A stretch of 34,520 nt of DNA. It comes from Micavibrio sp. (GTDB taxonomy: Bacteria > Pseudomonadota > Alphaproteobacteria > Micavibrionales > Micavibrionaceae). The position numbers were made by a program, and so were the translations under genes. This document shows positions 12,759 through 33,218 of this stretch, in pieces (the stretch's first letter is position 1; the number at the start of each line of letters is the position of its first letter). The stretch lies in assembly GCA_039808805.1 (NCBI GenBank), contig JBDHTU010000001.1:1-34520 (forward strand), in the 5' to 3' direction. The notes below the pieces were generated by a model. The model had not been told where the DNA came from, made no database searches, and worked only from the letters and a program-made list of their open reading frames with translations.

Positions 12759-13418
12759 ATGCACGGTACAACCCCGCTGACCACGATCATTCTGGAGGCA
12801 TACCGGGAAGGTATCTTCCCGATGGCCGAAAGCGCGGATGACGACAACTTCGCCTTTTACAAACCGCATATGCGCGGCCTGATCCCGATCCGGGACCTGC
12901 ACATACCCGCCAGGCTTTTAAAACGCCTGAAGCGGCGGGATTACACCGTCACCTTCAACCGCGCCTTCCGCGATATCATAGACGGCTGCGCGGCGCAGAC
13001 AGGCAAACGGCAGCAAACATGGATCAACATGCCGATCCGCAACATGTTCGTGCAACTGCACCGGGAAGGCCATGCGCATTCGGTGGAAGTCTGGGACAAA
13101 CGGGGCACTTTGATGGGCGGGCTTTACGGGCTTGCCATCGGCGCGGTTTTTTGCGGGGAAAGCATGGTGTCATTCCAGACCGGCGGCAGCAAACTCGCGC
13201 TTGTGTGGTTGTGTGCGGCGCTCTGGAAAGCGGGCTTTACCGTGCTGGATACGCAGTTCATCAATCCGCACCTGCTGCAATTCGGCGCCTATGAAATGAA
13301 ACAGGAAGACTATGAGGTTTTGATCCGGACGGAGATGAACCGCACCGCAGCGCCGCTTCGAACCGGTGAAATCAGTTCTGAACTATTTCAGAACTATCTT
13401 GAGATGCGAGTTCGCTAG
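12759..13418 (+). CDS. aat: Leucyl/phenylalanyl-tRNA--protein transferase
   Basis: Motifs seen are AYREGIFPMAES, FNRAFRDIIDGCA, HSVEVWDKRGTLMGGLYGLAIGAVFCGESM and LDTQFINPHLLQFGA. Confidence 0.93.
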   Translation: MHGTTPLTTIILEAYREGIFPMAESADDDNFAFYKPHMRGLIPIRDLHIPARLLKRLKRRDYTVTFNRAFRDIIDGCAAQTGKRQQTWINMPIRNMFVQLHREGHAHSVEVWDKRGTLMGGLYGLAIGAVFCGESMVSFQTGGSKLALVWLCAALWKAGFTVLDTQFINPHLLQFGAYEMKQEDYEVLIRTEMNRTAAPLRTGEISSELFQNYLEMRVR

Positions 13419-14127
13419 CCCGTACACGCTGCGCGCCTTTGAGCTTTTTCGCCGTATACATATCGGAATCGATCTGGCGCAGAACATCGCTCCTGAAATT
13501 GGCAGGATCGATTTCAGCATATCCCACACTCGCACCGATTTGTATGTCTTTACCTTCCCACACGAACGGCAGCGATTCCAGCGCATCGATAATTTCGATT
13601 ATTTTCTGCTTCGCGCCTTTCAGATTTGCATCGCGCAGGATCACAACAAACTCATCGCCGCCAATCCGGCAAACGGCATCTGTTTGGCGCGTCATCCCGG
13701 TGAGAGTGTCAACCACATGGCACAAAACGGCATCGCCCGCATCATGGCCATATGTATCGTTGACTTCTTTGAAGTGATCAAGATCCACCATCATCAGGAA
13801 ATGCTGACCCGTGGGTTTGCGTTTTTCAATGCGCAGTCCGCTTTGCATTTCGGCTATGGCCGATTGGAAATAACGCTTGTTGTAAGCCCCTGTCAGCGCA
13901 TCGGTAACGGAATCCCGTTCAAGATCCAAATTCCTGCGATGAAGTTCGGCAATGGTGTCGAGAAGTTCGGTCATCGCCTGTTTCCCGGCGGCGGGGTTTT
14001 TCCGGCACAGCCGGACAAGGCTGTCGGCAATACGGCCATGCAGCGTGTGATCGAGACTCAAGGCAGGGCGATGACTGCCAAGCATCGTCTGGATAAAACT
14101 CGTGATGATCGGTCCCTTTTTCCCCAT
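13372..14127 (-). CDS. GGDEF-domain diguanylate cyclase with a short non-membrane N-terminal region
   Basis: Motifs seen are DALTGAYNKRYF and MVDLDHFKEVNDTYGHDAGD. The active site is RIGGDEF, with an RxxD I-site (RQTD) exactly 5 residues upstream. Confidence 0.92.
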   Translation of the reverse strand: MGKKGPIITSFIQTMLGSHRPALSLDHTLHGRIADSLVRLCRKNPAAGKQAMTELLDTIAELHRRNLDLERDSVTDALTGAYNKRYFQSAIAEMQSGLRIEKRKPTGQHFLMMVDLDHFKEVNDTYGHDAGDAVLCHVVDTLTGMTRQTDAVCRIGGDEFVVILRDANLKGAKQKIIEIIDALESLPFVWEGKDIQIGASVGYAEIDPANFRSDVLRQIDSDMYTAKKLKGAQRVRASELASQDSSEIVQN

Positions 14128-18246: not shown

Positions 18247-18813
18247 TTATTTCTTCCGGCCTTCGGGAATGCGCCCGCCATGGCGTGCGACGAAATCCTT
18301 CAGCCTTTCCCCTTCGACATACAGTTCGCCCGGCAGAACCTTCCCGCCCGGCGTCACATGGAGGTCGAGGCTGAAGTCCCGCTTTTCCCGGATGAACAGG
18401 TCTTCCAGCGGTTTGGCCAGCGCCTCATCCACATAATATCTATGAACACCGGTATCGAAGCCCGAGTTCCAGACCTTTGTCCCGCGCAGGATGAAACGGC
18501 AATCCGGCAGGTTTCCCCCGGCCGGCAGACAGGCGGACAGCGATACCGGCGGGTTTTCCGCCCCCTCGCCTACGCACAGGCAGACGGATCCGCCTTCATG
18601 ATCTTTCTGCCACGCTTTGTCTTTCCAGTTCCACACCGTCTGGAACTGAAGGTAATGGCCGTAGAACAGGTCGCGCGGATCGTACGGCTCAATCTTCACG
18701 CGGAACGAGGGATAATCGCGGAACTTCTTGGCCGTCATCAGCGCGTTCGCCAGCGGCGCACCGACGGCGAGCGCGACGGACAGGACCGCAGCAATCATAA
18801 AACGGCTTTTCAT
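18247..18813 (-). CDS. GDYXXLXY-domain protein, a variant with GHY (periplasmic or anchored)
   Basis: The start MKSRFMIAAVLSVALAV at 18813 overlaps the upstream stop in an ATGA arrangement. The signature region is PYDPRDLFYGHYLQFQT, against the family pattern DPRDLFRGDYxxLxY. It is paired with a DUF2157 gene, as is usual for this family. Confidence 0.75.
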   Translation of the reverse strand: MKSRFMIAAVLSVALAVGAPLANALMTAKKFRDYPSFRVKIEPYDPRDLFYGHYLQFQTVWNWKDKAWQKDHEGGSVCLCVGEGAENPPVSLSACLPAGGNLPDCRFILRGTKVWNSGFDTGVHRYYVDEALAKPLEDLFIREKRDFSLDLHVTPGGKVLPGELYVEGERLKDFVARHGGRIPEGRKK

Positions 18814-19973
18814 GCTGCGGCCTCCGTCTTCGTGATGCGGCGGTTCAGGCGTCGCGCCGCGTAAATCAGCGCGAGCATCACCACCCCGCCGCTGATCAGG
18901 CCGAGCCCGGTGTTCATCAGGCTGCCGAACACTTCGACATAGATGATGAAAATACGCACCGCGATGACAGTGATCGCCAGCGACACGATCCGCATATGAT
19001 GGCATTTCTGGCCGAGCCAGCCGATATACGCCCAGTAGCCGATGAAGGCGATGGCGGGCACGATGGCCTCACCCGGTATGGGAAGGATCAGAGGCAGCAC
19101 GAAGGCGACAAGGCTGACCGCCGCAAAGATCGCCCCCGCCTTCATGGTTTCATCCTGCCTGTAAAATCTGTGCAGCATGGCATTGGCGGCGATCCCGGCC
19201 AGGCCCAGTGCAATAATAATGAGGCCGTGGTCTGGCTGCAGGAAACTGTTGTGGTTTAGAAGATTGCCGAAACGGCTCGACGGCCACATGGCAAGGCTGG
19301 CGCTCGCCTGCGCGATCATCAGCAAAATTCCCGCCCGCACCGCCACGTCGCACAAGACGGGCCGCCAGCGCCGGAACAGCGTGATCGTCCCGTCACCCAC
19401 CAGCGCCAGCGGCATCAGCGCGACGATGCCGACAGCGACGGAAAGGCGGTAGCTGTCCGGAAGGCTGTCCAGGTTTTCCGCGGCGACAATATAAACCGTG
19501 ACAAGGAACGCCAGCATCCACGGCGCGGCGGTCATGTAGCCCCGCCCCATCAAAAGGAAATACGGCAGCGTGATCAAAAGCCAGAACAGCGCGGCATCGC
19601 CCGGCGTGCCTGTCATCTGGAACACCTGGCCGATCAGGATGATAAGCGTAAAGGTCAGGCCGAGAAAAACGAGCGCCGCACCTTCGCGCCACAGGTCGCG
19701 TCCCGTTCGCGCCGCCCACAGGGACACAGCGCCGGCCGCAGCATTGATCAGAAGATGCGCGCCGATTTTCACGCTGCCGGGAATTTCGTGCCAGTTGGCG
19801 GCGATGATGGACAGCACGCCCACGAGGATAGCGAACAGGGAAAGCCCAACAAGCCCCCGGCCGAACCGTCCGCCCTTGCGGCGTTCTTCATAGGCATGGA
19901 TGGAGTCGGCCTGCGCCTCGGTCATAAGACCCGCCGCCACCCATTCGCGCAATTTTTTATGACGGATTGTCAT
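18810..19973 (-). CDS. DUF2157-type polytopic membrane protein
   Basis: The N-terminal cytoplasmic helix is KLREWVAAGLMTEAQADSIHAY. About 10 TM helices follow. It is translationally coupled to the GDYXXLXY gene. Confidence 0.75.
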   Translation of the reverse strand: MTIRHKKLREWVAAGLMTEAQADSIHAYEERRKGGRFGRGLVGLSLFAILVGVLSIIAANWHEIPGSVKIGAHLLINAAAGAVSLWAARTGRDLWREGAALVFLGLTFTLIILIGQVFQMTGTPGDAALFWLLITLPYFLLMGRGYMTAAPWMLAFLVTVYIVAAENLDSLPDSYRLSVAVGIVALMPLALVGDGTITLFRRWRPVLCDVAVRAGILLMIAQASASLAMWPSSRFGNLLNHNSFLQPDHGLIIIALGLAGIAANAMLHRFYRQDETMKAGAIFAAVSLVAFVLPLILPIPGEAIVPAIAFIGYWAYIGWLGQKCHHMRIVSLAITVIAVRIFIIYVEVFGSLMNTGLGLISGGVVMLALIYAARRLNRRITKTEAAA

Positions 19974-25545: not shown

Positions 25546-26244
25546 ATGTCACACCCATCCCCGCGCGCCGGAAATATCCTGATCTATCTTCTGGGGGCGA
25601 TTTTCCTGCTCGGCATCCTGCTGGCGCTGCTGCGCGGCAGTTTCCAGGAAGGCACCTCGGTCGATTCGGACAAGCTTTCCCTGAAGGTTTCGGAAGTGCA
25701 GCGCTACGCCGCTGAAATGGCGCGCGGGGTGAATTACATCCTGCAGAACGGCGCCAGCGAATCACAGCTTCTTTTTGCCGTTCCGACGGACAACAGCACG
25801 CCGTACGGGGACATCGCCACCACCCCGCCCTACCAGCTTTTTTCGCCGAAAGGCGGCGGCGTCGAATACAAGGCGCCCACCGCAGGGATCAATGACGGCA
25901 CCGCGTGGCAGTTTTTTGCAACGACACACATCGAAGATTTGGGCACGGACACGCATGCCGAAAGCAAGGCCGAACTGATCGCCGTCCTGCCCAACGTCAC
26001 CGAATCCTTTTGCCTGCGGATGAATCTTGCTATCGGTCAGGCCATAGATCTGGAAGAAGACACGGACGACTCCAGCGAAGGCTGCGTCTATGAACCGGGG
26101 TCGGAATTCAACGGCACTTACGCGTCCGGAACCGCAACCAATCTCCTGACCTCTGCTGAAATTCCGCGCCACCCGGCCACCGAACTTTGCGTCAGGTGTT
26201 CGACCGGCAACCTGCATTATTACCGGGTCCTGCTGGCGCGCTGA
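25546..26244 (+). CDS. Hypothetical N-terminally anchored periplasmic protein with 4 Cys
   Basis: GGGAGG lies 6 nt upstream, and the gene starts 10 nt after the carboxypeptidase stop. The TM helix is ILIYLLGAIFLLGILLALL. The cysteines sit at FCLRMN, EGCVYE and ELCVRCS. Confidence 0.6.
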   Translation: MSHPSPRAGNILIYLLGAIFLLGILLALLRGSFQEGTSVDSDKLSLKVSEVQRYAAEMARGVNYILQNGASESQLLFAVPTDNSTPYGDIATTPPYQLFSPKGGGVEYKAPTAGINDGTAWQFFATTHIEDLGTDTHAESKAELIAVLPNVTESFCLRMNLAIGQAIDLEEDTDDSSEGCVYEPGSEFNGTYASGTATNLLTSAEIPRHPATELCVRCSTGNLHYYRVLLAR

Positions 26245-26248
26245 TCGC

Positions 26249-26788
26249 TTATTTGTTGATCAAAGGCTCCATGGCGGGCAGTGAATTGGCGCTGCGGGTC
26301 ATGTATTTGCTGATGTCATAGGTGACGGGGAGCGCGTAGCTGTTGCTGGAAAGAAGCTGCGCCCGCTGTCCGCGCTCATGCAGGTAGAGCTTGACCTGCA
26401 TCGTCCCGTCCTTGATTTCATAGGTGCCGGACACTTCGTTGTACCCGCCGCCCGCATGCATCGTGTCGACAACGTTGTAGCCGAGCTGTGAAAACCGCTC
26501 GCGGATCTGGCCGCCGATAACCTGTCCCACTTTCGGGCTGGTGGTCACGGTTTTCTGGCGCGTGTCCGGAATTTCCTGAAGGTCTGAAACGAGCAGCGGC
26601 GTTTGCGGCAGCAGACGCTTGCCGGCGCGCTGGGCGAGGATTTCAGCCGCCGCGTAGGACGAATTGGTCAGGTTGACCCGCTTTTGCGCGATGATGCCGG
26701 GTGTGGCGACGCCCATCATCACGACCTCGCACCCGCCAAGCGCCACGGCGGCGCTCAGGGCAAGGACGCAAAGCGACGGGCGCAGCAT
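26249..26788 (-). CDS. Lipoprotein, possibly with a FlgO/LpoB-like fold
   Basis: The lipobox is VALGGC. A pattern follows of helix AAEILAQRAG, strand PLLVSDLQ, and then IGGQIRERFSQLGYNVVD. Confidence 0.65.
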   Translation of the reverse strand: MLRPSLCVLALSAAVALGGCEVVMMGVATPGIIAQKRVNLTNSSYAAAEILAQRAGKRLLPQTPLLVSDLQEIPDTRQKTVTTSPKVGQVIGGQIRERFSQLGYNVVDTMHAGGGYNEVSGTYEIKDGTMQVKLYLHERGQRAQLLSSNSYALPVTYDISKYMTRSANSLPAMEPLINK

Positions 26789-26794
26789 GAGCCT

Positions 26795-27418
26795 TTATTC
26801 CTGAAAGTTTCCGCCGGGGCCGGTCGGTTCCGGGATGAACGTGCCGGGGAAGGAGGCGAAGCGGACGTTGAGTTTTTCCGCGCCCTGAATGTAGAAGTCG
26901 CCGCTTTCCTGCGTGAGCATCCGGCTGTCTTCGCCGACCTTGTCATGCACGTGCAGCGTGATGCGCACGTTCGGGGACGTGTCGCCCGGCTGTACGGGTT
27001 CGGCTTTCAGCATCTCGGCATTGTAGGTGAACGCATAGGCATCGTCGGGCGTGTCCGCAAGGCGGTAGCCGACATGGCGCAGCGATTCGCGCAGGTCGTT
27101 GTCGAGGTTGGCATAGAACGGCGTCATCGGCTCGGGCTTGACCACATAGACCGGCTTCGGCGGCAGACCGGCGCGGGTCGTCAGCGTATCGACAAGCTGG
27201 TAGACCGACATGCGGAACTGTTCGGCCTGTTCAGGCCCCATGGTGGAGCGCTGCAATTCCGTGAATTTCGGCGATTCCGGCGGGTTCGGGGATTTGTACG
27301 GATCGTCGTGGTAGGCGTAGCCCTTCGGGATGGCGTTCGGGCTGCAGGCGGCGAGGCCCAGCGCGGCAACGCAGGAAGACAGGACAAGGGCGGAGAGTTT
27401 GGATTTCTTGTGAAGCAT
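26795..27418 (-). CDS. Lipoprotein, hypothetical
   Basis: The start is taken at MLHKKSKLSALVLSSCVAALGLAAC, which carries the lipobox LAAC. It shares the ...LRESLRHVGYRLAD element with the downstream lipoprotein. The gap to the next gene is 6 nt. Confidence 0.65.
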   Translation of the reverse strand: MLHKKSKLSALVLSSCVAALGLAACSPNAIPKGYAYHDDPYKSPNPPESPKFTELQRSTMGPEQAEQFRMSVYQLVDTLTTRAGLPPKPVYVVKPEPMTPFYANLDNDLRESLRHVGYRLADTPDDAYAFTYNAEMLKAEPVQPGDTSPNVRITLHVHDKVGEDSRMLTQESGDFYIQGAEKLNVRFASFPGTFIPEPTGPGGNFQE

Positions 27419-27533
27419 GGGGGACGATCCGTGAATAAGGATGTTGCAAATCAAAGACCCGGCCAGTCTACCAAGGATCGGATTGCCCGTATAGAGTCTT
27501 TGGGAAACAATCCCTTAGGCTTTTTGGCCGCCG

Positions 27534-27755: not shown

Positions 27756-27913
27756 GGCACCCTCCGATAAGGATTGGCGGTTGAAGAGAACGAACGGCGG
27801 AATCGCCGCTTTGATACTAAGAATTATTCGCAAAACAAGGGCGGGTGTCAAGCGCCTAAAAGTTAAAACCACAAGATATTGTGGATGAATGCGTTTTTAT
27901 AACACCAGATATA

Positions 27914-29395
27914 TTACCCGGTCTTGCGGGATTTATCGATGATCGCGGTCGTGCTGAACCCGTCCTGCATCGGCATGATCCGCACTCTGCCGCCATAAGA
28001 CTGCACGATCTTCGCTTCCGGCAGCTGGTCGATCGTGTAATCGCCGCCCTTGAAAAACAGGTCGGGCTTCAGGCTTTCGATCGCCACGCACGGCGTGTTG
28101 TCCTCCCCCGCCTTTTCGGCACCGAACAAAACCACCATATCGACGCTGCCGAGCGCGCCGATCACGGCGGCCCGCGCCTGTTCATCATTCACCGGACGCG
28201 AAGGGCCTTTGAGCAGCCGCACGGAAACATCCGTATTGATCGCGACGATCAGCCTGTCCACCTGCGCACGCGCCTGGGACAGGTATGTAACATGCCCCTT
28301 GTGCAGGATGTCGAAACACCCGTTGGTGAATCCCACCGTGGCCCCAGCATCTTTCCACGCTTTCACTTGCGCGCCCGCATCGTTCAGGCTGAGCAGCGGC
28401 GCAATCCCCGCGCCGATATCGCTGCGGCCAAGCGCAGCGTCCATATCCGCCGCCGTCACCGGCGCGGTGCCGATTTTCGAAACCGCAATGCCCCCCGCGA
28501 TATTCGCAAGCCGCGCCGAATCGTCCAGCGATGCGCCCGCCGCGAGCGCCGCCGCGAGGACGGAGATAACCGTATCGCCCGCACCGGACACGTCGAACAC
28601 ATCGCGCGCCTGCGCGGAAACATGAAGCGGTTTTGCCGTGACGGTAATGACGCTCAACCCGTCTTCGGACCGCGTGGCGATGACGGATTTGATCCCGCAC
28701 TCTTTCATGATCTTCTGCGCGGCGGCCGTGACGTCCGCATCGCTTTTCACGCTGCCCGCGCCCGCGGCCTCCGCGAGTTCCTTGCGGTTCGGCGTGACGA
28801 TATCCGCGCCGTGATAGATGGAATAATCCCGCCCTTTGGGATCGACCAGCACGGGAATGCCCTGCGCCTGTGCTGTTTTAATGATGCCCTGGATCAGGGA
28901 TTTTCCGAGCGTGCCCTTCCCGTAGTCGGACAGCACGATCGCCTTTGCCCCTTTTGCGGCTTTCTGCACGGTATCAAGCAGCGATTTTTCAATCACCGCA
29001 TCCGCCGCGTGCGTCTTTTCGAAATCCGCGCGCATCATCTGCTGGCTGCGCGCGAGGTAGCGGATCTTCTGCGTCGTCGGGCGCGAAGCATCGACGATCA
29101 GGCCGTGCGCGTCGTCGCCGTGCGATTTTGCGAGAGCGCGCACCGTATCCGCCGCGTCGTCCGCGCCGATCAACGTGAACAGGGACGGCTTCGCGCCGAG
29201 CGCGCAAAGATTGGCCAGCACATTGCCCGCGCCGCCGAGCATCAATTTCTCTTCCCGGATTGTCAAAACGGGCACCGGGCCTTCGGGCGAAATACGGTCG
29301 ACATCGCCCGCGACGAATTTGTCGAGCATCACATCGCCCACGACAAGAATTTTAAGACCCTGCGCCTTTTTTAGAATATTTTTAAATCCGTCCAT
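27914..29395 (-). CDS. hldE: Bifunctional D-beta-D-heptose 7-phosphate kinase / D-beta-D-heptose 1-phosphate adenylyltransferase
   Basis: The N-terminal ribokinase-like part carries ILVVGDVMLDKFVAGDVDRISPEGPVPV and DVSGAGDTV. The C-terminal cytidylyltransferase part carries GFTNGCFDILHKGHV. Confidence 0.95.
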   Translation of the reverse strand: MDGFKNILKKAQGLKILVVGDVMLDKFVAGDVDRISPEGPVPVLTIREEKLMLGGAGNVLANLCALGAKPSLFTLIGADDAADTVRALAKSHGDDAHGLIVDASRPTTQKIRYLARSQQMMRADFEKTHAADAVIEKSLLDTVQKAAKGAKAIVLSDYGKGTLGKSLIQGIIKTAQAQGIPVLVDPKGRDYSIYHGADIVTPNRKELAEAAGAGSVKSDADVTAAAQKIMKECGIKSVIATRSEDGLSVITVTAKPLHVSAQARDVFDVSGAGDTVISVLAAALAAGASLDDSARLANIAGGIAVSKIGTAPVTAADMDAALGRSDIGAGIAPLLSLNDAGAQVKAWKDAGATVGFTNGCFDILHKGHVTYLSQARAQVDRLIVAINTDVSVRLLKGPSRPVNDEQARAAVIGALGSVDMVVLFGAEKAGEDNTPCVAIESLKPDLFFKGGDYTIDQLPEAKIVQSYGGRVRIMPMQDGFSTTAIIDKSRKTG

Positions 29396-29556
29396 CTGGC
29401 TGGCCCTTTGAAAACAATCACTTCGCCCCGGGAGATTAAGCCTTTTTTTACCGGTTTTTCCAGCATTTTCGCCTATTTATTAGGATTTCATAAACCTTTC
29501 TTCGGCATACTAAAAGATGGGAAATTGGTAATAACGGTCTAATTACAGGGGAATCG

Positions 29557-30531
29557 TTGGGAGTGGAAGGACTCATCAACAGAAACGCGCCTTACAAAGG
29601 GGTTCTGACGGGCCTGAAAATCCGTCTGCACAAGAACCGCCTTGGCGAACTCCTCGTCCTCGACGGTTTCATCTCACCGGATGAACTGCAGCAAGCCCTC
29701 GTTATCAGCAAATCCACCGGCCGCGCTCTGGGGCATGTTCTCGTCGAAGACAATATCGTCGACCGCGAAGTCATCCGCCAGACGCTGATCGAACAATTCA
29801 TGCTCCGCATGATGATGACGGCATTGACCGTATTCATCTCCTTCGCCGGCATTGCCAGCGGCGGGATCAAACAGGCGAGAGCCGCCAGCATCAAGGATGT
29901 TCCGGCCCGCGTTGCGTTCCAGCAGGCTGCCGCTTACGCGCCGATGGGACAATATCCGAAAATTTTCGGCTCCAGCGAAAAACAATCCACCTCTCTCAAA
30001 GCCTTCACGAAATGGACCGGCATGTTCGACCGTTTCGATGCCGCGCTGAACAGCCCGGGCGGCCAGCAATCCATGAACGGATTTAAATCGCAGCTTGAAT
30101 TCCTGCGCGGCCTTCCGATGAACAAAATGATCTCCGGCGTGAACGATATCGTCAATCGCATTCCGTATGTCAGCGACGCCGCCGTGTATGGGCAGACGGA
30201 CTACTGGGCCACGCCGATGGAATTCATCAAAAACGGCGGCGACTGCGAAGATTTCGCCATCACCAAATATGTCGCGCTCCGCGCTCTGGGCGTTCCCGAA
30301 GAACGCATGCGTATCCTGATCCTGCAGGACATGCAGAAAAACATCCCGCACGCCGTTCTGGTCGTCTATTCCGACAACGGTCCGGTCATTCTGGACAACC
30401 AGATCAAGACCGTGACGCACGTGGACCGCATCTCGCATTATAAGCCGATCTTCTCGATCAACCGCGACGCCTGGTGGCTGCACACCAAACCGAAGGGCAA
30501 CGTCACCGTGGTGGCATCCTCGGCTCAGTAA
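29557..30531 (+). CDS. Fusion protein: N-terminal MshEN/T2SSE_N-like domain, one TM helix, and a periplasmic transglutaminase-like cysteine protease (BTLCP, LapG family)
   Basis: The start is a TTG with AGGGGA 6 nt upstream. Residues 28-51 are RLGELLVLDGFISPDELQQALVIS and residues 57-80 are ALGHVLVEDNIVDREVIRQTLIEQ, separated by 5 residues. The TM helix is MMMTALTVFISFAGIASGGI. The BTLCP triad context is GGDCEDFAITKY, IPHAVLVV and VILDNQ. Confidence 0.85.
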   Translation: MGVEGLINRNAPYKGVLTGLKIRLHKNRLGELLVLDGFISPDELQQALVISKSTGRALGHVLVEDNIVDREVIRQTLIEQFMLRMMMTALTVFISFAGIASGGIKQARAASIKDVPARVAFQQAAAYAPMGQYPKIFGSSEKQSTSLKAFTKWTGMFDRFDAALNSPGGQQSMNGFKSQLEFLRGLPMNKMISGVNDIVNRIPYVSDAAVYGQTDYWATPMEFIKNGGDCEDFAITKYVALRALGVPEERMRILILQDMQKNIPHAVLVVYSDNGPVILDNQIKTVTHVDRISHYKPIFSINRDAWWLHTKPKGNVTVVASSAQ

Positions 30532-30560
30532 GCCGGCCTTAAATTTGGCATAACATAAGG

Positions 30561-30587
30561 AACTTTCCAGCGATGGAAAGTTTTTGT
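30561..30587 (+). terminator. Rho-independent terminator after the MshEN-BTLCP gene
   Basis: The stem is AACTTTCCA / TGGAAAGTT with a 4-nt loop, followed by TTTTG. Confidence 0.85.
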
Positions 30588-30660
30588 GTTTGTGGCCCGA
30601 ACGGCTAAAGTCGGCTGGTTATTTCAGCCCTGTGAATTTTAAACGCGGATTTTAAACGTC

Positions 30661-32361
30661 ATGCTTCTGATACGTCTTCTTCTCTCTCTTGTCCTCGCCT
30701 CCTTCGTACTTTCCCCTGCCCCGGCGCTGGCCACTGCGGCGGTCTTGACGAAAGGCGGGGATACGGCGGCAGAGGAAGCCGAAAAAGCGCCGCCGCCCAT
30801 CGACCAGTGGGGGCGCAGCACGCCGCGCGGCTTGGTAGAGGGGTTCCTGAACGCCATCGGCAAGGAAGACTATGAGAAGGCGGCGCAGTATCTTGATCTC
30901 GGCAAGATTCCCGCGCGCGAGCGCGCAACCCGCGGCCCGCAACTGGCGCGGGACCTTCAGGGGCTGCTCGACAAAGGCGGCTGGTTCTACCCGTCTTCGA
31001 TGCTCAGCAGCGCGCGAGATGGAAAGCTGACCGATGAAACGCCCGCGGAAGAAGACCGGGAAGACGTGATCGGCAATCTGCGCGGCAACGGCAAAACCAT
31101 CGACATCATCGCGGCGATTTCCAAGGACGAAAACGGCCACCCGATCTGGCTGATCTCCGGCGATACGCTCTCGCAGATAGCCGGGCTTACGGGCAGCGCG
31201 GCGGATGAACCGCTGATCAACCGAATCCTGCCCGATACCCTGGTGGAATTGAAATGGGGCGGCGCGCCCGCCGGGCACTGGCTCGCAATGATCGTCCTGC
31301 TCGCCGCATCTTACGGGACCGCGTGGTTTATCATTCTGGGTCTGGTGCGGCTGGGCAAGAAGTACTGGAAGCGGCGCGCCTCGGTCAACGGCCATCATGT
31401 TCTGGACGCCGTGCGCGTTCCGGCAAGCCTCTATCTCGCCGTGTGGATCTTCGGCCTGGCCAGCCTGTGGCTCGGCGTTTCGATCATCGTGCGCCAGCAT
31501 ATCGGCCAGCTCAACGTTATCGTCGCATGGACGGCCATCGCACTGCTCGCCTGGCGGCTGATCGACATCTTCGCCGAGGCGACGCAGCAGAGGATCGGCT
31601 CCAACGGCCGCTTCTACGGCTTTTCCTCCATCCTCTATTTCTTCCGCCGGATCATCAAGATCGTGTTCGGCGTCGTCGTCGCGTTCATCCTGCTCGACAA
31701 TCTCGGCGTCGATGTCACGGCTGGACTGGCGGCTCTCGGGATCGGCGGTATCGCGCTCGCGCTCGGCGCGCAGAAGACGCTGGAAAACTTCATCGGCTCG
31801 CTCGCCATCGTCATCGACCAGCCGATCCATATCGGCGATTACTGCAAGATCGCGGGCGTGGCCGGAACGGTGGAGGATATCGGCATGCGCTCCACGCGCC
31901 TGCGCACCAACGAGCGCACGCTGGTCACCATCCCGAACGGCGACCTGTCGAACCAGACCATCGAGAACTACGCCCGCCGTCCGCGCTTCCTGGTGTCCAA
32001 GAAGTTCGAGCTGCGCTACGACGCGGGCGCCGGCGACATCCTCGCCTTCGTGCGCAAGTACGAAGAGATCCTGTTCGCCAGCGAACATGTCAATGAAGAG
32101 GGGTTCCCGGTGCGCTATCTCGGCCCCGGCCCGAACGGGCATATGATAGAACTATTCTTCTACATCAACGTGACCGACAACAACGAGTATCTGAAAGCGC
32201 AGCAGGCGCTGATGCTGCAAATGATCGACCTGGTCAACACGCTCGGCCTCTATTTCGTGATCCCGTCGCAGACGATGCTTCCGGCGGTGGATCAGCGGGG
32301 CGCGGAGGCCGGCGTTCACGCGGCTGCGGTCCCGTCTGTCAAACCCGCGGCGGCTCAGTAA
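30661..32361 (+). CDS. MscS-family mechanosensitive channel with N-terminal signal peptide and periplasmic domain
   Basis: The signal peptide is MLLIRLLLSLVLASFVLSPAPALA. The MscS core is GIGGIALALGAQKTLENFIGSLAIVIDQPIHIGDYCKIAGVAGTVEDIGMRSTRLRTNERTLVTIPNGDL. Confidence 0.9.
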   Translation: MLLIRLLLSLVLASFVLSPAPALATAAVLTKGGDTAAEEAEKAPPPIDQWGRSTPRGLVEGFLNAIGKEDYEKAAQYLDLGKIPARERATRGPQLARDLQGLLDKGGWFYPSSMLSSARDGKLTDETPAEEDREDVIGNLRGNGKTIDIIAAISKDENGHPIWLISGDTLSQIAGLTGSAADEPLINRILPDTLVELKWGGAPAGHWLAMIVLLAASYGTAWFIILGLVRLGKKYWKRRASVNGHHVLDAVRVPASLYLAVWIFGLASLWLGVSIIVRQHIGQLNVIVAWTAIALLAWRLIDIFAEATQQRIGSNGRFYGFSSILYFFRRIIKIVFGVVVAFILLDNLGVDVTAGLAALGIGGIALALGAQKTLENFIGSLAIVIDQPIHIGDYCKIAGVAGTVEDIGMRSTRLRTNERTLVTIPNGDLSNQTIENYARRPRFLVSKKFELRYDAGAGDILAFVRKYEEILFASEHVNEEGFPVRYLGPGPNGHMIELFFYINVTDNNEYLKAQQALMLQMIDLVNTLGLYFVIPSQTMLPAVDQRGAEAGVHAAAVPSVKPAAAQ

Positions 32362-32588
32362 CCGCTATATTCGTGCGCACCGAGCACGCCGTTGTTGTCG
32401 CGGTCCAGCATGATGAAGCGTTTCTGAACGGTTTTCATGTCATCGCCGCGATAACGGTCACGGAATTGCGCGTAGCTCATGCCCTGCGCCACAGGATCGC
32501 CGGCGCGGGAAATTTTGGGCGCCGCGGTTTCCACACCGCCGCAGGCGGCGAGAAACAGGGGCACTATAAAAAGGAACGGCTTCATCAT
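32355..32588 (-). CDS. Small lipoprotein with one canonical EF-hand calcium-binding loop
   Basis: The lipobox is FLAAC. The loop DRDNNGVLGAHE fits D-x-D-x-N-G-x-L-x-x-x-E. Its start overlaps the upstream HAD stop in an ATGA arrangement. Confidence 0.7.
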   Translation of the reverse strand: MMKPFLFIVPLFLAACGGVETAAPKISRAGDPVAQGMSYAQFRDRYRGDDMKTVQKRFIMLDRDNNGVLGAHEYSGY

Positions 32589-33211
32589 GCGGCCAGCAAC
32601 TCTTTTATAAAGGGATTCCCTGTAATATCATCGGGCCCGTCGACCAGAACGGCGTTCCAGCCGCGTAGCGAAGATACCTCGATATTGCGCGGATCGTCGT
32701 CAAAATAAAGCGGCGGATCAATGTGCGGATTTATCTCCAGCTCCTCTTCGATCTGCGCGAAATAATGCGGGTCGTATTTCAGGCAGCCGAGCCGTGCGGA
32801 ATAATAGAAATCTGCAAAATGGTCTTTCCAGCCAAGCGTGTTTTTCAGATACTGAATGCGTTCGTGACTCTGGTTGGTGGCTGTATAAAGGGAAACGCCA
32901 TCACGCCCGGACAGCGACGTCACCACATCGAACGCCGGACTTAACTTCGTATCGCGGCTGTGCCAGTAATCGATAACATCGGAAGACGCGTGATCGTAGC
33001 CGCGGGATTTAAGCCAGCGCTCCATCTCCTCCTGAAAATTCAAGCGCCCCTGCAAAACCTCCAAAAACCAGCCGTTGAAGATTTCCTGAAAATGGGCGGG
33101 CTTGATGCCGAGATCCCGTTCGATATGCGCATCCCACCGGTTGCGGCGTTCCGGTTTCGCATGAAACCCGTCGATCAAAACACCGTCGATATCGAAGAAA
33201 ATCCGCTGCAT
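32585..33211 (-). CDS. HAD-superfamily hydrolase
   Basis: Motif I is FFDIDGVLIDG, and a later motif is YFDDDPRNI. The ATG at 33211 has AGGAGAG upstream, whereas the track begins at the GTG at 33214. Confidence 0.8.
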   Translation of the reverse strand: MQRIFFDIDGVLIDGFHAKPERRNRWDAHIERDLGIKPAHFQEIFNGWFLEVLQGRLNFQEEMERWLKSRGYDHASSDVIDYWHSRDTKLSPAFDVVTSLSGRDGVSLYTATNQSHERIQYLKNTLGWKDHFADFYYSARLGCLKYDPHYFAQIEEELEINPHIDPPLYFDDDPRNIEVSSLRGWNAVLVDGPDDITGNPFIKELLAA

Positions 33212-33218
33212 CACTCTC

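Follow-up and report, generated by a model that had tools for sequence, protein, structure and literature searches.

How might cyclic di-GMP (c-di-GMP), a cytoplasmic second messenger, control an enzyme located in the periplasm, and could one small polypeptide suffice for the purpose? This question is raised by a gene of Micavibrio sp., found in a 34,520-nucleotide stretch of DNA (positions 1 to 34,520 of contig JBDHTU010000001.1 in assembly GCA_039808805.1) that was analyzed at its full length and is referred to here as the window. The gene is an open reading frame (ORF) with a TTG start that encodes a protein of 324 residues, in which an N-terminal c-di-GMP receptor module of the MshEN_N type is followed by a hydrophobic segment and a cysteine protease domain of the BTLCP family. 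The evidence presented below makes it probable that the N-terminal module senses c-di-GMP and thereby controls whether the periplasmic enzyme is delivered, retained, or active. The module and the gene that carries it comprise the following features (coordinates of the whole gene include the stop codon):

29557..30531, forward strand: the whole fusion gene (MshEN_N, hydrophobic segment, BTLCP), a single frame in all 63 related genomes

29599..29637, forward strand: conserved N-terminal extension, residues 15-27 (G15, L17, K21, R23, L24, N27), outside the canonical MshEN motif, with a short helix predicted

29638..29709, forward strand: first copy of the MshEN_N motif, residues 28-51, RLGELLVLDGFISPDELQQALVIS, identified by NF053729 and the PDB search, with L29, G30, G37, L44, and L48 invariant or nearly so in 64 sequences

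29710..29724, forward strand: five-residue spacer KSTGR, residues 52-56

29725..29796, forward strand: second copy of the MshEN_N motif, residues 57-80, ALGHVLVEDNIVDREVIRQTLIEQ, with L58, G59, L77, and Q80 found in 64/64 sequences and the last helix running into the membrane segment

The fusion is not an accident of assembly or annotation, because it is found in frame in 63 species-level genomes and its ligand-contact residues and catalytic triad are invariant. These 63 loci, detected in a scan of one genome per species, come almost entirely from Micavibrio-like or alphaproteobacterial metagenome-assembled genomes (MAGs); each of them consists of a single frame that extends to the C terminus of the query and, in all but one case, starts within its first 15 residues, at identities down to 42%. 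The conservation counts given below refer to 64 orthologues and to a more divergent set of 20 representatives at 36-47% identity. Clusters at the 90% identity level include more than 120 full-length relatives that are at least 60% identical to the window protein, and those with names carry a Micavibrio or Alphaproteobacteria label. An exhaustive search of 1.84 billion representatives at the 50% identity level returned 7,694 BTLCP relatives (E<=0.001). Of the 150 best, only 27 clusters have the N-terminal module (∼20 of these are full length), and the remaining clusters are ordinary proteins of 200-260 residues with an N-terminal signal peptide, so that the fused set represents one clade within a large BTLCP radiation. 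The loci L043 (DATJGZ010000021.1), L052, and L011, L022, L039, and L062 are labelled as Patescibacteria, Bdellovibrionales, or Pseudobdellovibrionaceae. The last of these labels is explained by the placement of Micavibrio in Bdellovibrionota at NCBI; by gene content and according to the 2011 genome paper, the lineage is alphaproteobacterial. For Patescibacteria, a binning error is the probable source of the label.

The two 24-residue segments separated by five residues that were noticed in an earlier inspection of this sequence (the original prediction) do occupy residues 28-51 and 57-80, on either side of KSTGR. The NCBIfam model NF053729 (“c-di-GMP_motif, MshE-related”) covers residues 28-80 with its positions 1-53 of 53, at 51.6 bits against a cutoff of 38 (E value of 5.9e-14), and the next NCBIfam matches are MshEN-bearing glycosyltransferases, including NfrB. 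Of the two types of hidden Markov models suggested originally for confirming this domain, only the MshE-related one reports it: Pfam T2SSE_N does not match the fusion protein even at E<=10, because the full-length Pfam model does not see a 53-residue subdomain. A PDB sequence search with residues 25-86 retrieved MshE of Vibrio cholerae (5htl, E value of 2.6e-5) and the GSPII domains of PilF from Thermus thermophilus (E value of 2.6e-13). In an AlphaFold2 model of the fusion protein built on 46 homologues, residues 31-80 of the module have predicted local distance difference test (pLDDT) values of 90-96. The modelled module superimposes on the c-di-GMP-bound GSPII-B domain of PilF (8pfa/8pdk) at 1.0 Å over 53 residues with 43% identity, and on MshE 5htl at 1.7 Å over 56 residues, and is thus predicted to adopt a compact four-helix fold like that of ligand-bound MshE and PilF GSPII-B. 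The match to NF053729, the PDB sequence matches, and the fold match together settle the identification of the module as MshEN_N.

The C-terminal part of the protein contains the following features:

29959..30510, forward strand: BTLCP (Peptidase_C93) catalytic domain with its N-terminal lobe, residues ∼135-318, identified by PF06035, LapG structures, and Foldseek

30241..30252, forward strand: Asp229-Cys230-Glu231-Asp232, the catalytic Cys and the flanking acidic calcium-site residues, 64/64, aligned to LapG GGDCEDFAI

30349..30351, forward strand: catalytic His265, 63/63, aligned with the LapG His

30394..30396, forward strand: catalytic Asp280, 63/63, aligned with the LapG Asp

The complete BTLCP domain that had been predicted here is recognized by PF06035 at 73.3 bits against a cutoff of 27. 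The sequences GGDCEDF, PHAVLVV, and ILDNQ, cited at the time as the context of its Cys, His, and Asp residues, are all present, and Cys230, His265, and Asp280 align with the catalytic triad of LapG from Legionella pneumophila and Pseudomonas fluorescens and are invariant in the orthologues. The PDB sequence search matched LapG structures from these two organisms with E values of 2e-22 and 6e-21, respectively; the Foldseek TM-score to LapG is 0.67, with pLDDT values of 83-98 for the BTLCP domain. The acidic residues around the Cys constitute the calcium site in LapG, a motif described in PMC13090378 and PMC4241560, and the fusion protein, judging by its sequence, carries the DCED calcium motif with a predicted site.

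The region that joins the two domains holds the features on which the interpretation of this protein depends:

29806..29808, forward strand: Arg84, basic and n-region-like, just before the hydrophobic segment, R in 63/64 and K in 1/64

29809..29868, forward strand: uncharged hydrophobic segment, residues 85-104, a signal-anchor or internal signal-peptide h-region by Kyte-Doolittle analysis and alignment with BTLCP-only signal peptides

29875..29883, forward strand: Ala107-Arg108-Ala109, a signal-peptidase-I-type (-3,-1) box, with cleavage predicted after Ala109

29887..29907, forward strand: juxtamembrane SIKDVPA, residues 111-117, shared by close orthologues and the nearest BTLCP-only relatives but lost from divergent members, pLDDT of <50

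The single transmembrane helix of the original prediction corresponds to the only uncharged hydrophobic segment of the protein (19-residue Kyte-Doolittle maximum of 1.75), which, however, is short in most orthologues and aligns with cleavable signal peptides. Its length is 16-18 residues in 55 of the 64 orthologues, with no charged residue in any of them; the 20 residues of the window segment, flanked by Arg84 and Lys105, are due to a three-residue insertion. In the box that follows, position -3 is occupied by Ala in 55, Ser in 5, and Val in 4 orthologues, and position -1 by Ala in 62, Ser in 1, and Asp in 1, so that the signal-peptidase (-3,-1) rule is obeyed by 63 of the 64 sequences. It is also obeyed by 20/20 divergent representatives, in which A109 is invariant and position -3 is A, S, or V throughout. 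This [A/S/V]-x-A box is the sole conserved element of the linker. The rest of residues 105-133 is unconserved and contains insertions of up to ∼45 residues, such as those of 20-45 residues that are found directly after the AxA box in proteins P0131 and P0133 (alignment columns 150-172).

The segment and the box align with the N-terminal signal peptides and AxA sites of unfused BTLCP relatives; with a slash placed after the box, the aligned sequences are ARA/ASIKDVPARV in the window protein, AYA/SSYYDIPDQV in P0137, and AYA/VNLRDIPDYI in P0138. By this alignment, residues 85-104 are a homologue of the Sec signal peptide that is cleavable in related BTLCPs. In the simplest evolutionary reading, a periplasmic BTLCP would have acquired an MshEN_N module on its signal peptide, and selection would have maintained the signal-peptidase site from then on. 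In the AlphaFold2 model, helix 70-100 runs unbroken from the last ligand-contacting helix of MshEN into the hydrophobic segment, and the linker (residues 102-121) is disordered, with pLDDT values of <50. An N-in/C-out topology can be deduced because c-di-GMP is cytoplasmic, the BTLCP family is periplasmic, and a single uncharged segment lies between the two domains. The positive-inside rule is uninformative for this protein, as the charges of the flanks are nearly balanced and do not alone fix the topology. Autoproteolysis at a di-alanine of the LapG type was considered and rejected, given that position 110 is G, A, or D in the family, so that the A109-A110 pair of the window protein is not conserved.

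How, then, could c-di-GMP bound on one side of the membrane affect the enzyme on the other? The one-component inside-out switch proposed originally retains its basis, in that a single polypeptide contains the module, the membrane segment, and the protease. However, the tethering of the protease in that proposal is doubtful, and its direct gating by c-di-GMP is argued against by the linker: being disordered and variable in length, it is not expected to pass a conformational signal to the catalytic domain. Because the linker cannot transmit, while the sensor is rigidly joined to the anchor helix, regulation is better placed at the anchor itself. The N-terminal module would then remain in the cytoplasm and bind c-di-GMP, with the C-terminal enzyme being exported. 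Occupancy of the module would act on the anchor helix and set whether signal peptidase I cuts after Ala109, resulting in two alternative fates of the protein, an uncleaved precursor held at the inner membrane and a soluble periplasmic protease, an alternative that resembles the sequestration of LapG by LapD. By analogy with the LapD-LapG system, high c-di-GMP might be guessed to favor retention, and low c-di-GMP to favor release.

A precedent for ligand-dependent cutting of an N-in single-pass protein by signal peptidase is RsiV, an anti-sigma factor of Bacillus subtilis (PMC4183432, PMC6066255). RsiV likewise combines an N-terminal domain in the cytoplasm with one membrane segment, and its signal-peptidase site, which lies immediately outside the membrane, is cleaved conditionally on ligand binding. 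It shows no sequence relationship to the fusion protein and differs in orientation: its ligand, lysozyme, binds outside and the signal goes inward to a sigma factor, whereas in the arrangement proposed here the ligand would be inside and the product outside. Overall, c-di-GMP-regulated cleavage and release of the BTLCP enzyme without a LapD-type receptor is the preferred explanation, with somewhat less than an even chance of being correct. Its realization as a ligand-gated Sec signal peptide, by which cytoplasmic c-di-GMP would decide whether signal peptidase I frees the periplasmic protease from the inner membrane, can be put forward only tentatively.

Several considerations weigh against cleavage controlled in this way. 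The hydrophobic core is preceded by 84 residues, so the signal is not N-terminal, and a folded domain of ∼80 residues before a cleaved signal peptide would be unusual. Lys105 (position -5), Arg108, Lys113, and Arg118 produce a net positive flank that is atypical of Sec-cleaved proteins. Conservation of the AxA box may have a cause unrelated to cleavage, the polarity of the regulation is only an analogy, and the second motif copy has neither the canonical Arg at position 1 nor the Gly at position 10. Finally, DvhG of Desulfovibrio vulgaris functions while permanently membrane-anchored (PMC13090378).

The last example makes DvhG a functional membrane-anchored BTLCP and speaks for a permanent tether, the model favored in the original prediction. 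In it, the segment would be an uncleaved signal-anchor, and c-di-GMP would change the oligomerization, membrane position, or partner binding of the protein and hence its access to substrate. Such a tether would fit the presence of a single uncharged segment between R84 and K105, the modelled continuity of sensor and anchor as one helix, and the positive charges after the segment, which disfavor a classical cleaved signal peptide. However, it leaves unexplained why [A/S/V]-x-A alone is conserved in a variable, indel-rich, disordered linker and why this box aligns with the real cleavage sites of relatives; a disordered linker could not pass a conformational change to the protease domain, and 16-18 residues are short for a stable anchor. 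On balance, the permanent tether appears doubtful, though it deserves serious consideration.

The same signal-peptide homology and (-3,-1) box would also be expected if the protein were cleaved constitutively, in which case the module would set the stability or Sec targeting of the precursor or would persist as a 109-residue membrane-anchored c-di-GMP-binding stub. Strong purifying selection on the ligand-contact residues shows that the module is in use, as constitutive cleavage with such a role for it would also imply. However, neither of these roles has a known precedent, and an extra component, a protease or a targeting factor, would be needed. No conserved cytoplasmic partner gene was found near the fusion gene in the synteny comparison of the 63 loci (∼20 kb each), in which partners were sought within 10 kb. 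Constitutive cleavage is therefore unlikely.

All these scenarios have the module bind its ligand, and the predicted capacity of MshEN_N to do so in this family is well supported by sequence. The positions L29, G30, G37, L44, L48, L58, G59, L77, and Q80 vary little or not at all among the 64 orthologues, and I73 is L or I in the family. In MshE, mutation of L10, G11, L25, L29, L39, G40, L54, or L58, the counterparts of L29, G30, L44, L48, L58, G59, I73, and L77 in the fusion protein, lowers or abolishes c-di-GMP binding, whereas alteration of Arg9, Asp12, or Gln32 changes affinity less than 5-fold (PMC5013675). Ser51 of the fusion protein is the equivalent of Gln32, and Ala57 is the equivalent of Arg38, which is not among these altered residues. 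The polar positions 1, 10, and 24 are R, G, and S in copy 1 (Q replaces the Ser in 35/64 orthologues) and A (P, Q, or R in the family), N66 (N, R, or A in the family), and Q (64/64) in copy 2. Deviations from the published signature had been reported for both copies. Those at positions 1 (A) and 10 (N) of copy 2 stand, while copy 1 fits completely the relaxed form of the published motif.

Should c-di-GMP binding nevertheless have been lost, the module might serve as a protein-protein adaptor or localization domain like the GspE/XpsE-type N1 domain, with the BTLCP regulated in some other way, e.g., transcriptionally, as HvyA is. In addition to the two departures in copy 2, this would be consistent with the existence of MshEN-like domains that do not bind, such as those of XpsE and PilF GSPII-A, and with the extra helix in residues 15-27, which recalls the site-occluding helix of PilF GSPII-A. 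Against it, all the hydrophobic and Gly positions essential in MshE are invariant, the window protein scores above the cutoff of the dedicated model NF053729, which 19 of the 20 divergent representatives also match, and the best structural match is the ligand-bound GSPII-B. Loss of binding is thus quite improbable. The N-terminal extension, whose helix (residues 18-25) is modelled at low confidence (pLDDT of 50-63), could by the same analogy with GSPII-A modulate c-di-GMP binding.

The description of the protease as LapG-like holds at the level of the BTLCP family but not beyond it. The NCBIfam equivalog for LapG, NF045674, scores 100 bits against a cutoff of 320 (it is matched at E<=0.001 by 20/20 divergent representatives, the best at 5e-35), and identity is ∼30% to the LapG structures versus 42-53%, in the catalytic core, to BTLCP-only relatives with signal peptides, the nearest of which with an organism name comes from an alphaproteobacterial MAG. 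The His-to-Asp spacing is 15 in the fusion protein and, by published numbering, in HvyA, versus 17 in LapG. Because of the sub-cutoff equivalog score and the lower identity to LapG than to signal-peptide BTLCPs, the fusion protein is not classified, at the sequence level, as a LapG orthologue. It is closer to the signal-peptide alphaproteobacterial BTLCPs, a group that includes HvyA, an indirect comparison in the case of HvyA itself, for which its published description and numbering were used. A LapG orthologue that still needs both a receptor of the LapD type and an adhesin of the LapA type, their genes lying elsewhere, with MshEN as a second layer of control, would agree with LapG being the closest solved structure and with the presence in Micavibrio aeruginosavorus ARL-13 of a 2892-residue RTX/VWA protein that adjoins type I secretion genes and is induced on attachment (PMC3189940), but it is very improbable in view of the equivalog score, identities, and spacing given above and of the lack of genes for LapD, type I secretion, or an adhesin in the window, as had been observed originally, or within 10 kb of the fusion gene across the 63 loci.

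HvyA of Caulobacter crescentus, the characterized member of the alphaproteobacterial group, is, with its Sinorhizobium homologues, likewise a periplasmic BTLCP with the triad, the calcium residues, and a His-Asp spacing of 15. It is Sec-exported and prevents capsulation, with no adhesin cleavage known, and it differs from the fusion protein in having a plain N-terminal signal sequence and no second-messenger domain, being controlled by its abundance in the cell cycle (PMC4241560). Given that the fusion protein is not a LapG orthologue and is placed near HvyA, a LapA-type adhesin is not required as its substrate. The substrate could be an envelope protein encoded elsewhere, either a type-I-secreted RTX/VWA adhesin for prey attachment or a target of the HvyA type in surface polysaccharide assembly. 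Synteny provided no candidate partner or substrate in any of the 63 loci. Two BTLCP relatives, P0242 and P0224, contain a C-terminal SPOR domain, which binds septal peptidoglycan, a hint that some of this BTLCP radiation operates at the cell wall or division site instead of on adhesins. BTLCP relatives with long N termini were examined for other sensor domains, and none were found.

In the alginate system, Alg44 is likewise a single polypeptide with a cytoplasmic c-di-GMP-binding domain, organized as PilZ, a transmembrane helix, and a periplasmic domain. It differs from the fusion protein in that its receptor fold is PilZ and its output is a polysaccharide secretion scaffold, not an enzyme. 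LapD-LapG of P. fluorescens and the corresponding CdgS9-LapG of Legionella have in common with the fusion the BTLCP fold, the Cys-His-Asp triad, and the DCED calcium motif, as well as cytoplasmic c-di-GMP as input and the periplasm as the output compartment. However, they consist of a separate receptor (LapD, with degenerate GGDEF and EAL domains) and a soluble protease, whereas the fusion has MshEN_N on the export segment of the protease itself. In the DvhG-DvhD system of D. vulgaris Hildenborough, DvhG is likewise a membrane-localized BTLCP and has both an N-terminal transmembrane helix and a disordered linker of considerable length. It differs in having no c-di-GMP-binding domain of its own, in being regulated by DvhD as a separate receptor, and in being encoded in an operon for an adhesin and type I secretion; plain signal peptides are found in most of its orthologues (PMC13090378).

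The same 53-residue, two-motif module is used as a regulatory add-on in MshE/PilB-type ATPases, in the NfrB glycosyltransferase, and in the MshEN_N-Peptidase_M23 combination (PMC5013675). These fusions differ from that with BTLCP in the output domain. The M23 fusion (NlpD of Acaryochloris) likewise has a minimal MshEN_N before an envelope peptidase; it is uncharacterized, was reported from only two cyanobacterial genera, and appears only in Supplementary Table 4 of PMC5013675, where no BTLCP combination is given. The MshEN fusions enumerated in that founding paper are with ATPase, glycosyltransferase, REC, CheA/CheX, cyclase, kinase, and Peptidase_M23 domains, and BTLCP is not among them. The latest structural study of how BTLCPs are regulated deals with one that is anchored in the membrane and with no sensor fusion (PMC13090378), and a search of full-text literature, which did not extend to subscription journals or domain databases (e.g., InterPro), found no published description of an MshEN-BTLCP fusion. 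The components themselves are known: MshEN_N is a widespread receptor module with many outputs, and BTLCPs are periplasmic enzymes, LapG being the classic c-di-GMP-controlled protease. The arrangement of a sensor on a signal peptide could be the part that is new in principle.

The fusion gene looks monocistronic, with the following signals at its two ends:

29547..29552, forward strand: Shine-Dalgarno-like AGGGGA, 4 nucleotides 5' of the TTG start, read from the sequence

30558..30585, forward strand: terminator-like hairpin, a 12-bp stem followed by a T run, 3' of the fusion-gene stop

Translation from an internal start, which would give rise to an ordinary secreted BTLCP, was rejected, as M82 is found in only 18/64 orthologues and no Shine-Dalgarno sequence precedes M82 or M85. 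Likewise, the long ORFs at 27881-29374 (forward strand), 29674-30483 (reverse strand), and 30652-32142 (reverse strand) are antisense to hldE, the fusion gene, and the MscS gene, respectively, and are not genes; the apparent conservation of some of them in other loci is due to their shadowing of real genes. CtrA-like boxes (TTAA-N7-TTAA with at most 1 mismatch) are present in the 300 nucleotides 5' of the fusion gene in 39/62 genomes, compared to 19.8 ± 3.5 in mononucleotide shuffles, which are a weak control; the stretch considered in the window is 29300-29598, and its box is TTAAGCCTTTTTTTA, at 29436-29450. Such boxes are of interest because hvyA is cell-cycle regulated (PMC4241560).

The fusion gene belongs to the syntenic core, and its neighborhood is one of housekeeping and envelope genes. 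It is divergent from hldE in 59 of the 63 genomes, and the gene for pyruvate kinase is usually next downstream, at a median distance of ∼680 nucleotides in most related genomes. In the window, the genes for an MscS-type channel (30661-32361, forward strand) and a HAD hydrolase (32585-33214, reverse strand) sit between the two, and this pair (30661-33214) is a lineage-specific insertion into the conserved block. Other conserved neighbors, farther upstream, encode a DD-carboxypeptidase, two small lipoproteins, ClpS/ClpA, and a phasin; ribonucleotide reductase is also a conserved neighbor. The two small proteins with lipoprotein signals (26249-26788, ...LGGCEV, and 26795-27454, ...LAACSP, both on the reverse strand) have no Pfam match; their genes lie downstream of hldE on the same strand and are kept beside it in ∼40/63 genomes. 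The 232-residue product of 25546-26244 (forward strand) has a single N-terminal hydrophobic segment and no Pfam match, and its gene follows that for the DD-carboxypeptidase in ∼40 genomes.

The sensor-less GGDEF cyclase with an intact I-site, noted originally as a potentially relevant enzyme, was confirmed:

13372..14127, reverse strand: GGDEF diguanylate cyclase of 251 residues with an RxxD I-site and no recognizable sensor domain, Pfam 124 bits

Its I-site motif is RQTD, five residues before GGDEF. The protein is a possible source of c-di-GMP; in none of the 63 loci does a homologue of its gene lie within 10 kb of the fusion gene. In the rest of the window, genes were found for IMP dehydrogenase, RlmE, an M48-TPR peptidase, DsbA-like proteins, PCuAC, biotin carboxylase, Aat, a CitMHS transporter, ClpA/ClpS, the phasin, the DD-carboxypeptidase, HldE, the MscS-type channel, the HAD hydrolase, and pyruvate kinase. 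An adjacent pair of uncharacterized membrane-associated proteins (18247-19973, reverse strand), consisting of a DUF2157 protein (18810-19973) and a GDYXXLXY protein (18247-19005), is unlinked to the fusion gene elsewhere.

So far, c-di-GMP control of periplasmic proteolysis has been described only as a two-protein relay, LapD-LapG or DvhD-DvhG. In the fusion family, one small protein with a different receptor fold would suffice for this task and, at 324 residues, would open the transmembrane transmission of a second-messenger signal to direct dissection. The family extends the catalogue of MshEN outputs by BTLCP and flags the large alphaproteobacterial BTLCP group, HvyA and its relatives, as second-messenger targets. 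If the signal-peptidase box is functional, a new principle would emerge, second-messenger control of signal-peptide processing, and a ligand-gated signal peptide, if real, would constitute irreversible one-protein inside-out signalling that couples c-di-GMP to attachment or envelope remodelling in Micavibrio-type predators. With every functional step inferred, the conserved fusion would be a one-protein counterpart of LapD-LapG in predators that have been little studied, and, as a core gene of this entire lineage of obligate epibiotic predators, it offers an entry point to the switching between search and attachment.

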